Assembly (NCBI GenBank): GCA_964610095.1
Contig: CAZSUT010000001.1
Span: forward strand, 626-64,625
Source of the DNA: an uncultured Nitrospirales bacterium
GTDB lineage: Bacteria > Nitrospirota > Nitrospiria > Nitrospirales > NS-4
Length of the DNA stretch: 64,000 bases
Direction: 5' to 3'
Part shown: one piece after another, positions 35,794 to 40,225 of the stretch
Layout of the letters: each line of letters opens with the position of its first letter
How positions within the stretch are numbered: position 1 is the stretch's first letter
Made by a program: the position numbers and the translations under genes
The notes under the pieces: generated by a model
Told to the model about the DNA's origin: nothing
Database searches by the model: none
The model's input: only the letters and a program-made list of their open reading frames with translations

Positions 35794-36405
35794 TTATTTC
35801 TTCTTCTCGCCCTTCTCGTAATCCGTCCCGTACCCGGAATCCGGTGAATAGCAGTTCCAGCACTGTCCACCGACTCCGCCTAGGACGGAGCTACTCGGGG
35901 CGTTGATGCCGCGATCCGTATCCGGCTGATAGCCAGCTTGGGGCACCAACTGGGTCGGGGTGACGGCCTGACGGATGATGCCCAAATCCAAGATGAAGGC
36001 ATCACCTTCGGGAACGTCTGCTGCGAAGGCACCAGTTCCGAGCTTTCTATAGTTCCGCTCGGCCTGAACCTCAACATCGTTACCCAAGTCGATCGCCTTT
36101 ACGTTCTCTATGTTGGTCTTGGGACCAATCCGCAGCGTGACCAGCGCCCCTCCGCCGGTTTCGACGTAGATCTTCCCGCCGGGGATATCCTTGCCCCAGA
36201 GACGGCCATAGATTGTCTCGGGCTTCGACAGCAGCTCGCGCATGAACGTATTATCAATCCCACCACCCGGACCGCTGCCGATCTTGCCGGTCCCGATCCC
36301 CGAAAAACCCTCCTGCAAGACCGACCGCTCTTGGGCCACCGTCTCCCCTACAACCCACATGATGGAGACAAGGGCAACTGCACTGATTGTTAGGATCCGT
36401 ATCAT
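35794..36405 (-). CDS. Hypothetical secreted protein
   Basis: ATG at 36405 is preceded by GGGAGGTG. Signal peptide MIRILTISAVALVSIMWVVGETVA. No recognisable domain. Confidence 0.6.
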   Translation of the reverse strand: MIRILTISAVALVSIMWVVGETVAQERSVLQEGFSGIGTGKIGSGPGGGIDNTFMRELLSKPETIYGRLWGKDIPGGKIYVETGGGALVTLRIGPKTNIENVKAIDLGNDVEVQAERNYRKLGTGAFAADVPEGDAFILDLGIIRQAVTPTQLVPQAGYQPDTDRGINAPSSSVLGGVGGQCWNCYSPDSGYGTDYEKGEKKK

Positions 36406-36669
36406 AGGCTTCACCTCCCTCTGGGATAAATATAATAAGTTCCGACGACGCCTGAACGCCGCCACTTGCGCCTGAGCAGATACCCCTACTCAATCGAAAG
36501 GTGGGTCGTACTATAGCGCACGCCCCAAAGTTGTGTCAAGGGGTTAAATTGCCGGAAAACAGAAGAATTCTAGCTTAATTAACTTGAGGTATTGAATATC
36601 CGGCACATTTGATCGTTTCACCCGTTGCAACCGGTGAGCAACGGGTCCCCGGGTCCAGCAAGCTCGGAG

Positions 36670-36755
36670 TGGTGCCCGGGGGGAGGGTCGAACTCCCATG
36701 GTGTCGCCACCGGCGGATTTTGAGTCCGCTGCGTCTGCCATTCCGCCACCCGGGC
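36670..36755 (-). tRNA. tRNA-Leu (anticodon CAA), CCA encoded
   Basis: The reverse complement folds as a cloverleaf: acceptor GCCCGGG/CCCGGGC, anticodon stem GCGGA/TCCGC with loop CTCAAAA, a long variable arm, and T-arm GGGAG-TTCGACC-CTCCC, ending ACCA. Confidence 0.9.
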
Positions 36756-36775
36756 GCCGACAGGTCGCCACGCCG

Positions 36776-36804
36776 TTTCTAGCACGAGCCTTCCGAGGCG
36801 TCAA
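36776..36804 (-). promoter_or_regulatory. Putative promoter of tRNA-Leu
   Basis: Minus strand reads TTGACG - 17 nt - TAGAAA, preceded by TGc, about 20 nt upstream of the tRNA 5' end. Confidence 0.4.
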
Positions 36805-36836
36805 GGCAAGCATGTTTTCTTTTCCGTCGAAGGCTG

Positions 36837-36845
36837 TGCTAGAAT
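36837..36845 (+). promoter_or_regulatory. Extended -10 element (TGcTAGAAT) upstream of yggX
   Basis: TGCTAGAAT lies 21 nt upstream of the ATG at 36866. A GGGAGGG SD sits at 36851-36857. Confidence 0.4.
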
Positions 36846-36865
36846 CGCGCGGGAGGGATCCGGGC

Positions 36866-37117
36866 ATGGCACAGGTCCAATGCGTCCGTTGTGGCAATCA
36901 AGGGGAAGCAATCACCGAGCCCTTGTTCTTGGGCAAGCTTGAGACCCAGGTGAAGGCTAATATCTGCGCGCCGTGCTGGGCGGAATGGGTGAAAATGCGT
37001 GTGATGGTCATTAATGAATACCATGTGAACCTCGGCGACGAGAGCGGACGCGCCTTGGTCAGGGAACAGATGCTGAACTTCTTGAAACTGCCCAAACCGG
37101 AGCAACAGCCGCAATAG
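36866..37117 (+). CDS. yggX: Fe(2+)-trafficking / oxidative damage protection protein YggX
   Basis: 83 aa. MAQVQCVRCGNQGEAI...PCWAEWVKMRVMVINEYHVNL...MLNFL resembles YggX. The ORF-track start 36698 would overlap the tRNA. Confidence 0.8.
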   Translation: MAQVQCVRCGNQGEAITEPLFLGKLETQVKANICAPCWAEWVKMRVMVINEYHVNLGDESGRALVREQMLNFLKLPKPEQQPQ

Positions 37118-37217
37118 GCCGACGCTCCCGTCCTCACGTCGTTTCCGCCAGCCTCCATTCATTTGACAAGGGAGACGTGGAAGTGGTAGGTATGGTGACG
37201 CCTTTCGAGGGTGTCGC

Positions 37218-37673
37218 ATGCTGACTCAGATGCATGTCCAGGGGTTGATGTTCGACCCCTATACGAATGCCTACATCGTCATCCTCCGGGATGAGAGCAA
37301 CACCGAGATGCTCCCCATCTGGGTGGGCAAGCCTGAGGCTAGCGCCATCAGTTTTGCCATGGAGGGGATCACCACCCCTCGGCCGATGACCCATGATTTG
37401 ATGAAAGTCATTCTGGAGACAGCCGACGCCAAGGTCATCAGCGTGGTGGTCACTGACCTCAAGGACAACACCTACTACGCCAGGCTCCATCTCCTGTATG
37501 AGGATTCGGAGTACTCGATCGACGCCCGGCCCAGCGACGCGATCGCCCTGGCCTTGCGATCGAAAGCCCCTGTGTTCGTCAACGACAATGTTATCCGCAA
37601 GAACGGTAGCGAGGACATGGACCGCTGGTTGGAGAATCTCAAGCCCGAGGATTTCGGCAAGTACGACGCGTAA
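37218..37673 (+). CDS. Bifunctional nuclease (DUF151/BFN) family protein, paralog 1
   Basis: 151 aa. LPIWVGKPEASAI...PRPMTHDLM...VVVTDLKDNTYYARL...DARPSDAIALALR is the BFN core. Confidence 0.8.
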   Translation: MLTQMHVQGLMFDPYTNAYIVILRDESNTEMLPIWVGKPEASAISFAMEGITTPRPMTHDLMKVILETADAKVISVVVTDLKDNTYYARLHLLYEDSEYSIDARPSDAIALALRSKAPVFVNDNVIRKNGSEDMDRWLENLKPEDFGKYDA

Positions 37674-37786
37674 TCGGTCACTCATCCCAGTCAGTTACGG
37701 TTCCCGGTCTCAACCAGTCGACTCCCGCTGATGACGGATAACATTGGTTCAGCACGGCGGTAACGGTTGAAGGATCGCGCGACTCG

Positions 37787-38266
37787 ATGGAGGGCACGTT
37801 GATCAAGCTGACGGTACAGGGCGTGATGCCTGACGCCATCCCCAACTCGGAGAGCCAGGTGGTGATCCTGCAGGACGAGAGCAAGACCAATACCCTGCCC
37901 ATCTGGGTCGGTGTCGCCGAGGGGACCGCCATCAGGCTGGCCCTGGAAGGAGTGGTTCCTCCGCGGCCGCTTAGCCATGACCTGATCCGGAACCTGACCG
38001 AGCAACTGGGCTTGACAATCTCGAAGGTCGTCGTAACCGACGTCAAGAACAACACGTACTACGCCTCGATCTACCTGAGGAGCAAGCAGTCGGACACGCA
38101 ATCGGAACTGACGGTGGACTCCCGGCCGAGCGACGCGATCGCGTTGGCCTTGCGGACCAGCAGTCCGATCTACGTTACGCAAGAAGTCTTGGACCACCTG
38201 GCTCCTGAAAATGTCGATCCCTGGCTGAAGATGCTGGGATCGAAAGAGTTCGGCGGCACGGTCTAG
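37787..38266 (+). CDS. Bifunctional nuclease (DUF151/BFN) family protein, paralog 2
   Basis: 159 aa. LPIWVGVAEGTAI...PRPLSHDLI...VVVTDVKNNTYYASI...DSRPSDAIALALR. Confidence 0.8.
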   Translation: MEGTLIKLTVQGVMPDAIPNSESQVVILQDESKTNTLPIWVGVAEGTAIRLALEGVVPPRPLSHDLIRNLTEQLGLTISKVVVTDVKNNTYYASIYLRSKQSDTQSELTVDSRPSDAIALALRTSSPIYVTQEVLDHLAPENVDPWLKMLGSKEFGGTV

Positions 38267-38284: not shown

Positions 38285-38716
38285 ATGACGAGAACCTATT
38301 CCGCCAAGAAGGCGGACATCACACGCAAGTGGTACGTGGTCGATGCGGATGGGAAGACACTGGGCCACTTGGCCTCGCAGGTCGCGATCGTGCTCCGGGG
38401 CAAGCACAAGCCGGTCTTCACCCCGCACGTGGACACCGGCGACCACGTGATCGTCATCAATGCTGAAAAAGTGCACCTGGCCGGCGACAAAGTCCGGACG
38501 AAGACATACTACCGCCATTCGGGCTACCCCGGCGGGTTGAAGACGGAAACCGTCAGAGAGGTTCTGAGCCGCAAGCCTGCTGCGGTGCTCGAACGGGCCA
38601 TTAAAGGCATGTTGCCCAAGACCCCACTCGGCAAGCAGATGGCTCGCAAGTTGAACGTGTATGCCGGTCCGACCCATCCGCACCGGGCGCAGCAGCCTGA
38701 GGCGTTGACCATCTGA
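38285..38716 (+). CDS. rplM: 50S ribosomal protein L13
   Basis: 143 aa. [29 protein letters not shown]. Confidence 0.97.
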
Positions 38717-38741: not shown

Positions 38742-39137
38742 ATGTCCATGACAAACGCCACGAACGCGACGGGCAAACGGAAGCGGGCCGTCTGCCGAGC
38801 CTGGATCTGCGCGGGGTCCGGCCAGTTCACGATCAATGACTGCTCCCTGGAATCCTATTTTCCGCGAGCGACTCATCGGTCGACGGTCATCTATCCGATC
38901 GAGATCACCAACCTTCACGGGAAGCTGGACGTGAAGGCGACGATCGAAGGCGGCGGGAACAGCGGCCAAGCGGGCGCGCTCAGGCACGCCCTGTCGAAGG
39001 CCTTGGCCACGATGGATCCTGCGCTGCGCCCGATCCTCAAGAAGGAGGGGCTCCTCACCCGGGACTCGCGCACGAAGGAGCGGAAGAAATACGGACAGAA
39101 GGGAGCGCGCAAGCGCTTCCAGTTCTCGAAACGATAA
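38742..39137 (+). CDS. rpsI: 30S ribosomal protein S9
   Basis: 131 aa. GGGNSGQAGALRHALSKAL...KKYGQKGARKRFQFSKR. Confidence 0.97.
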   Translation: MSMTNATNATGKRKRAVCRAWICAGSGQFTINDCSLESYFPRATHRSTVIYPIEITNLHGKLDVKATIEGGGNSGQAGALRHALSKALATMDPALRPILKKEGLLTRDSRTKERKKYGQKGARKRFQFSKR

Positions 39138-39160
39138 CGGGGGCGACAACCTTTTCAAAA

Positions 39161-39188
39161 GGGAAGGCCCCTCGGCCTTCCCTTTTTT
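39161..39188 (+). terminator. Rho-independent terminator after rpsI
   Basis: GGGAAGGCC-cctc-GGCCTTCCC followed by TTTTTT. Confidence 0.85.
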
Positions 39189-39208
39189 ATTACTCGGAGC
39201 ATTGTCGG

Positions 39209-40225
39209 ATGACAACGGTCGCAGTAGTCGGGGCCAGTGGCTACGTCGGAGGGGAACTTCTGCGTCTCCTGTACCGCCACCCCAAGGTGCGGGTCACCGC
39301 CGTCACGTCGGAGCAATCCGCGGGCAAGCCGGTGCTGTCGCTGTTTCCCAACCTCGTGGGACCGGAACTGGTCTGCGAAGCCCTTGACCCTGACCGGATC
39401 GCCACCAGGGCCGACGCGATCTTCCTGGCGTTGCCCCATACCAAGTCAGCCGGTCCCGCACAACAGTTCCTCAAGGCCGGTCGCAAGGTCATCGACCTGA
39501 GCGCCGACTTCCGCCTCAAAAACGCGCAGGCCTACGAAACGTGGTACCAGACCACGCATCCCTGCCCGGACCTTCTGCAAATCGCCGTCTACGGCTTGCC
39601 CGAACTGCACCGCGACGCGATCCGATCGGCCACCCTGGTCGCCACACCCGGATGTTACGCGACCGCAGCGGTCCTCTCGCTGGCGCCGCTGGTCACGCAC
39701 CGGTTGCTGAGCGAGCCGGTCATCATCGATGCAAAATCTGGGATCTCCGGCGCGGGACGCACCCCAGCCCTCACCTATCATTTCCCGGAGGCGAACGAAT
39801 CCATCGTAGCGTACAAGCTAGGGTCCCACCGGCACATTCCGGAGATCGAACAAGAACTCGGCGTGACCGTCTCGTTCACCCCGCATCTGGTGCCCATGAC
39901 GCGGGGCATCCTCAGCACCGCCTACGTGCGCCTGCGGGAGGCCCGCACCACGGAACAGCTGACGGCGCTCTATCGGGACTTCTACAAGAACGAGCCGTTC
40001 GTGCGGGTGTTGGACCCGGGACAATCGCCGAATCCGCTGCATACCCGCGGCGCCAACCTCTGCGAGGTCTCGGTCTTCGTCGATCCGCGGACCGGCACGG
40101 CCACGCTGATAGCCGCCCTCGACAACCTAGTCAAGGGCGCAGCCGGTCAGGCCATCCAGGCGTTCAATCTCCTGCAGGGATGGGACGAAACGCTGGGGCT
40201 TCAGGACTCCGGCCTCTATCCATAA
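39209..40225 (+). CDS. argC: N-acetyl-gamma-glutamyl-phosphate reductase
   Basis: 338 aa. VAVVGASGYVGGELLRLL and the PGCYAT active-site Cys. Confidence 0.95.
   Translation: MTTVAVVGASGYVGGELLRLLYRHPKVRVTAVTSEQSAGKPVLSLFPNLVGPELVCEALDPDRIATRADAIFLALPHTKSAGPAQQFLKAGRKVIDLSADFRLKNAQAYETWYQTTHPCPDLLQIAVYGLPELHRDAIRSATLVATPGCYATAAVLSLAPLVTHRLLSEPVIIDAKSGISGAGRTPALTYHFPEANESIVAYKLGSHRHIPEIEQELGVTVSFTPHLVPMTRGILSTAYVRLREARTTEQLTALYRDFYKNEPFVRVLDPGQSPNPLHTRGANLCEVSVFVDPRTGTATLIAALDNLVKGAAGQAIQAFNLLQGWDETLGLQDSGLYP

Follow-up and report, generated by a model that had tools for sequence, protein, structure and literature searches.

Proteins of the bifunctional nuclease (BFN) or DUF151 family are widespread in bacteria, archaea, and plants, and a structure was solved in 2004. 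Here, we describe two diverged BFN genes, bfnA and bfnB, that lie in tandem immediately ahead of the ribosomal protein genes rplM and rpsI in a 64,000-nucleotide (nt) stretch of DNA from an uncultured Nitrospirales bacterium (GenBank assembly GCA_964610095.1, contig CAZSUT010000001.1, positions 626 to 64,625), the whole of which is called the window below. TM0160 of Thermotoga maritima and Rv1829 (Cor) of Mycobacterium tuberculosis form homodimers via the DUF151 domain, and the proposed site is composite, with Asp115 and His58 supplied by one monomer and Thr57 by the other (PMC7249048). Cor is needed for carbon monoxide (CO) resistance and virulence of M. tuberculosis, and no DNase or RNase activity was observed with it (PMC3870250). 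In contrast, maltose-binding protein (MBP) fusions of plant HCR-DUF151-UVR proteins degraded DNA and RNA in vitro (PMC7249048), so that the nuclease literature conflicts, the plant fusions being active and the BFN-only Cor inactive. The plant DUF151-UVR proteins UVR2-4 were strongly enriched on a CLPC1 substrate trap (PMC8889267), and a BFN protein of Mycobacterium smegmatis is found in the ClpC1 interactome (PMC10433963).

The Nitrospirales genes resemble TM0160 (PDB 1VJL/1SJ5) in fold and signature motifs, but TM0160 is encoded by a single gene and crystallized as a homodimer, whereas here there are two diverged tandem genes. Cor, compared by its description, is likewise small and consists of the BFN domain alone, and forms dimers whose interface holds a conserved cleft (PMC3870250); it differs in being single copy, reportedly outside any operon, in an actinobacterial neighborhood, and with no known link to rplM-rpsI. 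The plant BBD/UVR2-4 proteins (HCR-DUF151-UVR; OmBBD and AtBBD1/2) have the DUF151 core in common and likewise occur as paralogs within one genome, but they dimerize through HCR and carry HCR and UVR (PF02151) domains that are absent from both proteins described here; a BFN+UVR protein, P0283, served as positive control for the UVR scan and was recognized. The closest single-copy homologs, approximately 45 to 55% identical to the bfnA product, belong to miaB-BFN gene pairs of Acidobacteriota, Desulfobacterota, Methylomirabilota, and Nitrospinota. Like bfnA, these have the C-terminal peptide and sit in a translation-related operon; they differ in having one BFN gene, a linker that is 9 amino acids longer, and proteins that end in GKYKM.

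To place the pair in its lineage, we scanned one genome per species and obtained 80 loci with 5 kb of neighborhood on either side, 14 from Nitrospirales/Nitrospiraceae and 66 from other lineages; these were screened with a hidden Markov model (HMM) built from both paralogs. Two adjacent BFN genes followed by rplM were found in all 14 Nitrospirales loci, among them those of Nitrospira sp. RSF12 and the comammox bin UW-LDO-01, with rpsI, argC, and argJ after rplM wherever the contig extends far enough. All 66 loci from Acidobacteriota, Methylomirabilota/Rokubacteria, Desulfobacterota, Nitrospinota, Thermodesulfovibrionia, and others instead had a single BFN gene, and rplM was absent from their 5-kb flanks. 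Because the pair and the adjacent rplM occur in every Nitrospirales locus and neither occurs in the other 66, the duplication and the move beside rplM are placed at the base of the order. We consider it very probable that this was an ancient, order-wide tandem duplication that left two functional, asymmetrically diverged genes leading the rplM-rpsI unit.

Four contigs with a close bfnA ortholog all read yggX-BFN-BFN-rplM-rpsI, continuing into argC-argJ-rpsB-tsf where the contig reaches. An upstream yggX accompanies the pair in most Nitrospirales loci, and none was detected in two of them (L006 and L011). Among the best matches listed for both proteins, those with a name were Nitrospirota (Nitrospira, Nitrospiraceae, and Nitrospirales metagenome-assembled genomes), with one labeled Phycisphaerales. 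Outside the order, 51 of the 66 loci have miaB, which encodes a radical-SAM tRNA methylthiotransferase, as the immediate upstream neighbor of the single BFN gene, and the two often overlap (for example, L021:3567-5483, L044:3567-5483, and L069:3645-5498, all within the set L015-L084), and the miaB neighbors scored above the TIGR01574 (MiaB equivalog) cutoff in 5/5 cases tested. Single-copy Nitrospirota from outside the order have other neighbors, namely, NuoF-like and Lon genes in L013 and PfkB and RecO genes in L032. Neighboring miaB and lptF/G genes were found by targeted phmmer searches, and LptF/G genes are frequent within a few kilobases of the single BFN genes of non-Nitrospirales loci.

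A preliminary description of the locus, made from the sequence alone, had called BFN proteins usually single copy; that holds for the 66 related loci within their 5-kb flanks and fails for the fused BFN-BFN proteins of other lineages considered below. Its impression that such a pair was new stands: in the literature searched, we found no description of tandem BFN genes, of Nitrospira BFN genes, or of a link between DUF151 and MiaB. An apparent DUF151 match in a mutant-fitness preprint (10.1101/072470) proved to be DUF1513. All numbers of the preliminary description, including coordinates, gene sizes, the 113-nt spacer, a 34/39-nt stretch shared by the two genes, and the flanking genes, were reproduced.

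Individually, bfnA and bfnB are ordinary, already annotated members of a known Pfam family (COG1259), and the NCBI records of their orthologs already carry the name "bifunctional nuclease family protein." They are the only BFN open reading frames (ORFs) in the window. Their products score 137.8 and 131.6 bits against PF02577 (cutoff, 27), covering profile positions 1-109 and 1-106 of 112, and no Pfam domain besides BFN_dom was found in either at E ≤ 0.01. The two proteins are identical at 69/152 positions (45%). Their domains do not share a single frame as in fused forms, the starts being offset by 569 nt, which is not a multiple of 3, with a stop codon and 113 nt between them. Membership in an antiphage defense system was rejected, as neither protein matched a PADLOC model at E ≤ 0.01.

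Both proteins match the sequence of the TM0160 crystal structure (E values of 1.8e-29 for bfnA and 2.2e-26 for bfnB). An AlphaFold2 model of the bfnA product (predicted local distance difference test score, pLDDT, 85; predicted template modeling score, pTM, 0.81; residues 1-130 confident) was matched by Foldseek to 1VJL/1SJ5 at E = 6e-16 with TM-scores of 0.78 to 0.86, so that the TM0160-type fold is assigned to bfnA by model and to bfnB by sequence only. No PDB fold other than TM0160, and no known nuclease fold, matched the model at E ≤ 0.001, and the structure therefore gives no independent support for nuclease function. By alignment to Thr57/His58/Asp115 of TM0160, the proposed cleft residues are T58/H59/D107 in bfnA and S63/H64/D116 in bfnB, with a conservative Thr-to-Ser replacement in the latter. 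Thus, both copies retain the residues proposed to line the site, and neither has lost them, a loss that the preliminary description had considered as the mark of a decaying duplicate. What it called the putative active-site region is a proposal from the TM0160 structure, and no nuclease activity was observed with the BFN-only Cor/Rv1829 (PMC3870250).

The two copies have diverged at different rates. By ortholog comparison, bfnA is the slowly evolving, ancestral-like copy and bfnB the fast, derived copy, changing 2 to 3 times faster. Across the 11 Nitrospirales loci analyzed, bfnA is exactly 151 amino acids long in every case, and bfnB ranges from 155 to 171; mean ortholog identity is 72% for A-A and 54% for B-B pairs. 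Where synonymous sites are unsaturated, the ratio of nonsynonymous to synonymous rates (dN/dS) is 0.02 to 0.07 for bfnA and 0.04 to 0.17 for bfnB, and dN of B is usually approximately 2 to 3 times that of A. These values indicate two functional genes under strong purifying selection, and the low ratio of bfnB marks it as functional and not decaying. In a neighbor-joining (NJ) tree, the A clade groups with single-copy Nitrospirota sequences, and the B sequences form a monophyletic group with a long branch. A 9-amino-acid deletion in the linker before the C-terminal tail is common to A, B, and the Nitrospirota singles and was not seen in the displayed representatives of other phyla, so B appears to have arisen inside the phylum rather than to have been imported. 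All B orthologs have fixed Ser for Thr in PRPxTHDL, and the resulting PRPxSHDL, together with TYYA and (S/A)RPSDA, is invariant across the B clade. In the genus Nitrospira, bfnB also carries changes in otherwise invariant motifs, from LPIWVG to FMVWVG and from DAIALA to DAFALA.

Relative to its closest ortholog (L002), the bfnB of the window has a lineage-specific 4-amino-acid insertion, SDTQ (approximately 38091-38114), in the loop before the signature motif; it sits inside a near-repeat (CAGTCGGACACG / CAATCGGAACTG) and accounts for most of the excess length over the orthologs of 155 to 156 amino acids. The start of this gene is tentative. Codon 5 (37799) is an in-frame TTG with GGAGG at an ideal distance before it, and the annotated ATG (37787) has AAGGA 12 nt upstream as its sole such signal; the ATG was retained as the start because close orthologs conserve an N-terminal MEnGL/MDSSL.

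A conserved promoter upstream of bfnA, short gaps between genes, and a terminator after rpsI (Table 1) make a single transcription unit bfnA-bfnB-rplM-rpsI most likely. The 10 matches to TTGACA-N15-TGnTAnnn[TA] in 213 kb (both strands) come from 10 of the 11 Nitrospirales loci, one per locus, and all lie 52 to 150 nt upstream of bfnA; this count is descriptive, the pattern having been derived after seeing the alignment. The pattern has a single match in the 64-kb window, at the tabulated position, and the sequence around it is otherwise unalignable. The element failed a generic sigma-70 scan, its -10 hexamer ending in A, and is read as a promoter because it is unique and at a fixed position. 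No terminator-like site was found between yggX and rpsI, and the site after rpsI is the only credible one on the plus strand downstream of yggX, two others falling inside the tRNA-Leu gene region. The rplM start lies 18 nt past the bfnB stop, and this gap is 15 to 42 nt in the 8 of 11 loci in which the rplM start could be placed. No conserved promoter for rplM was evident in the alignment of the 3' end of bfnB. The preliminary description had set the pair beside yggX and rplM-rpsI; the flanks are as described, but yggX is probably a separate transcription unit, because the conserved promoter lies between it and bfnA.

The spacer between bfnA and bfnB varies from -1 to 114 nt across the order and from -1 to 21 nt in the genus Nitrospira, in which the genes are 17 to 21 nt apart or overlap. 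In the window, the 113-nt spacer appears unstructured (RNA fold z-score of +0.85 against shuffled sequences), has no Rfam match and no terminator or promoter consensus, and shares neither alignable sequence nor length with the spacers of relatives; a regulatory RNA, attenuator, or terminator there was rejected on these grounds. At 39121-39231 (plus strand), Rfam gives a weak match to the rpsL leader of Pseudomonas (26.7 bits; gathering score, 70) that overlaps the terminator after rpsI and is most likely due to chance.

Table 1. Positions of the two BFN genes and of the features around them in the window
Feature	Position	Strand	Description
tRNA-Leu(CAA)	36670-36755	-	Opposite strand to the bfn genes
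yggX-like Fe(2+)-trafficking gene	36866-37117	+	PF04362, E = 1e-14; probably outside the unit
Likely promoter of the unit	37163-37192	+	-35 TTGACA at 37163-37168, 18-nt spacer, extended -10 TGgTAGGTA at 37184-37192
bfnA	37218-37673	+	151 amino acids; complete BFN/DUF151 domain, PF02577, E = 1.7e-40
A-B spacer	37674-37786	+	113 nt, without detectable element
bfnB	37787-38266	+	159 amino acids; complete BFN/DUF151 domain, PF02577, E = 1.4e-38
rplM (ribosomal protein L13)	38285-38716	+	PF00572, E = 1.9e-48
rpsI (ribosomal protein S9)	38742-39137	+	PF00380, E = 5.3e-47
Intrinsic terminator after rpsI	39157-39186	+	Strong; 13-bp stem followed by a T-run

The asymmetry extends to the C terminus. The tails read WLENLKPEDFG in bfnA, within the C-terminal peptide W137-LENLKPEDFGK-148, and WLKMLGSKEFG in bfnB. 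The W-L-x-x-L-x-x-(E/K)-(D/E)-F-G tail that the preliminary description noted is thus present in both genes, but it is not special to the pair: single-copy homologs of other phyla (L015-L084) have a sharply conserved C terminus, which typically reads ...(W/F)LE(N/S)L(S/D/K)PEDFGKYKM, ends the protein, and looks like a terminal docking motif. The bfnA lineage retains this family-wide peptide (WLENLKPEDFGK), and bfnB loses its end in most lineages, the full motif W[LI]xx[LIVM]xxx[DE][FL]G being found in 11/11 A orthologs and 3/11 B orthologs, with W-L-x-x-L alone remaining in the other B sequences. In the AlphaFold2 model of bfnA, the tail forms a short helix (residues 132-139) followed by a low-confidence segment, and the crystallized TM0160 chains do not cover the region. 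On this modeled form, the bfnA-type tail looks like a short docking peptide.

Two BFN domains also occur within single proteins. A profile search of 1.84 billion representatives returned 14,025 BFN clusters (E ≤ 0.001), and the two-domain forms were drawn from the top 150. Seven (P0247, P0266, P0267, P0270, P0280, P0352, and P0390) have two diverged BFN domains in a chain of approximately 300 to 370 amino acids, and larger double-BFN proteins add four Clp_N repeats (P0336), a CHAT protease domain (P0344), or an extracytoplasmic function (ECF) sigma factor (P0350). Single-BFN forms with extra modules carry PDZ (P0269 and P0303) or UVR (P0283). Several of the fused genes are on long contigs of up to 8 Mb. 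In some fusions one half is partly degenerate and lacks some of the motifs; the first half of P0247, for example, has Phe instead of His, and that of P0390 reads ATTLTHPL. These proteins follow the same logic as the A/B pair, in that two diverged domains are made together, some with a degenerate half; they differ in being one polypeptide, in that none ends in the WLxxLxPEDFGK tail, and in that some have twin-arginine translocation (Tat) or other signal peptides or extra domains. The existence of diverged fusions shows that pairing of two nonidentical BFN domains evolved repeatedly. In the P0390/P0394 cluster, a twin-arginine-type signal (RRQFLRILAFGG) on a fused BFN-BFN protein implies an exported BFN pair. 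We rejected P0241 and P0245 as fusions, since their exact internal repeats of approximately 90 residues are probably assembly or gene-calling artifacts, and P0399/P0403 of the P0390 cluster as natural unfused pairs, since they look like frameshift artifacts.

Taken together, the explanation that we favor, with somewhat better than even confidence, is a Nitrospirales-specific duplication that produced a co-made A/B pair heading the rplM-rpsI operon. Transcription would start at the extended -10 promoter upstream of bfnA and end after rpsI, and the products of bfnA and bfnB would be made together with L13 and S9. A heterodimer of BfnA and BfnB is the arrangement that we consider most likely, at about even odds. 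Such a dimer would have one conserved cleft and a single docking tail supplied by A; A would also supply the intact half-site, so that B could tolerate motif changes and loss of the tail. Four arguments suggest this proposal. BFN proteins are obligate dimers whose cleft is composite; bfnA and bfnB adjoin each other in every case and in many come close to overlapping; B alone tolerates tail loss and altered invariant motifs; and fused BFN-BFN proteins elsewhere show the same logic.

Several points weigh against this explanation. In the window, both copies hold the full set of cleft motifs, with which two homodimers are equally compatible. AtBBD1 and AtBBD2 homodimerize and form no heterodimer, with the qualification that the plant-specific HCR domain mediates dimerization there (PMC7249048). 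Co-transcription is read from sequence features, and an internal rplM promoter may lie inside bfnB. The NJ tree does not put B as sister to A, for which the long branch of B is a possible cause, and an in-lineage origin of B then rests mainly on the shared deletion and on adjacency.

The main rival, which we regard as rather unlikely, is that the paralogs are sub- or neofunctionalized and act separately as two homodimers with diverged roles. A2 would be of the ancestral type with a docking tail, and B2, its cleft altered by the exchange of Thr for Ser, would have changed its partner or lost it. Each copy in the window could form a complete homodimer, known family members are homodimeric, and the diverged tail and N terminus of B fit a changed partner. 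However, in the genus Nitrospira, the FMVWVG and DAFALA changes would give B2 a doubly altered cleft; strict adjacency, with spacers as short as those of that genus (-1 to 21 nt), suggests coupled, equimolar synthesis; and the repeated fusion of two BFN domains in other lineages speaks for the viability of mixed pairs.

An improbable alternative is that bfnB was acquired horizontally and inserted beside bfnA instead of arising by duplication. Besides the position of B in the NJ tree, its near equidistance from A (40% identity), the Nitrospirota singles (36 to 40%), and other phyla (38%) could be taken in this sense, but the long branch of B explains equal distances as well. B also has the linker deletion of A and the Nitrospirota singles, it stands in tandem with A in the same orientation, and the listed best matches to B (down to 57% identity) are Nitrospirota where named.

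The preliminary description attributed the 34/39-nt stretch to an old duplication with either constraint or gene conversion on the putative active-site region. Constraint on the signature motif is supported, and ongoing gene conversion homogenizing the motif DNA of both copies is very improbable. The stretch (37521-37559 against 38117-38155, encoding DARPSDAIALALR / DSRPSDAIALALR) is the best 39-nt window of the bfnA-bfnB gene alignment and specifies the family signature D(A/S)RPSDAIALALR, with 12/13 residues identical. No motif of the family is more conserved than this one, and amino acid constraint together with codon bias suffices to account for the nucleotide identity. The same codon is used at 8/12 identical residues inside the stretch and at 26/54 outside it (Fisher P = 0.34). 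Local codon usage predicts 5.0/12, and the probability of at least 8 is 0.06, a value uncorrected for the choice of the best window; over the whole gene, 34/66 identical residues share a codon against 29 expected. Synonymous differences between bfnA and bfnB are near saturation (proportion of synonymous differences, pS, 0.60), and the A and B clades are fully apart, with no grouping by genome. Gene conversion was therefore rejected, on nonsignificant codon-identity tests and separate clades.

The last alternative, that bfnB is a decaying duplicate heading to a pseudogene, has in its favor the faster rate of B, the loss of the end of the C-terminal motif in 8/11 B lineages, and the motif drift in the genus Nitrospira, but it is strongly disfavored and the least likely of all, since the B frame is intact in 14/14 loci, its dN/dS is low and its core motifs (PRPxSHDL, TYYA, and RPSDA) invariant, on which grounds pseudogenization was rejected, and B has been kept since the base of the order.

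With respect to function, the genomic context (miaB in other phyla and rplM-rpsI here) and the fusion partners lead us to favor a BFN role in binding or processing tied to translation or protein quality control over that of a general DNase/RNase. The fusion partners Clp_N, PDZ, CHAT, and UVR are protein recognition or proteolysis modules and not nucleic acid enzymes, and we consider the "bifunctional nuclease" label weak, an annotation of convenience. The placement beside rplM-rpsI and the miaB-BFN pairing point to translation and not to bulk nucleic acid degradation. A bolder formulation, which we hold to be doubtful, is that BFN proteins are dimeric adaptors or processing factors in translation or Clp-type quality control and not general nucleases, that the C-terminal ...WLENLxPEDFGKY(KM) is a docking motif, and that the homodimer became in Nitrospirales an obligate single-tail A/B heterodimer stoichiometric with L13 and S9. 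If that were true, nature would have provided in the A/B pair a "half-site" version of the family, usable to identify the partner and function of DUF151. The asymmetric divergence of the pair amounts to an experiment of nature that bears on which half of the dimer depends on the cleft and which on the tail.

The tandem pair, the asymmetry with which its copies diverged, its place ahead of rplM-rpsI, the family-wide C-terminal peptide, and the miaB-BFN pairing all appear to be undescribed. The locus represents a known family in a modestly different, lineage-specific form and shows no new mechanism or kind of system; its value lies in hypotheses for the old DUF151 family, in nitrifiers that are hard to manipulate genetically.

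Upstream of the unit, the yggX product scores above its Pfam cutoff and below the NCBIfam equivalog cutoff (58.8 against 74 bits). A mechanically called ORF of 139 amino acids (36698-37117, plus strand) extends yggX upstream and overlaps tRNA-Leu(CAA) (36670-36755, minus strand); yggX itself begins with the ATG at 36866. Farther upstream, a 223-amino-acid ORF (35794-36465, minus strand) has no Pfam or NCBIfam match and is kept beside yggX in most Nitrospirales loci. Upstream of this ORF lies a near-consensus sigma-70 promoter, TTGACA-18-TATAGT (11/12), at 36510-36539 on the minus strand.

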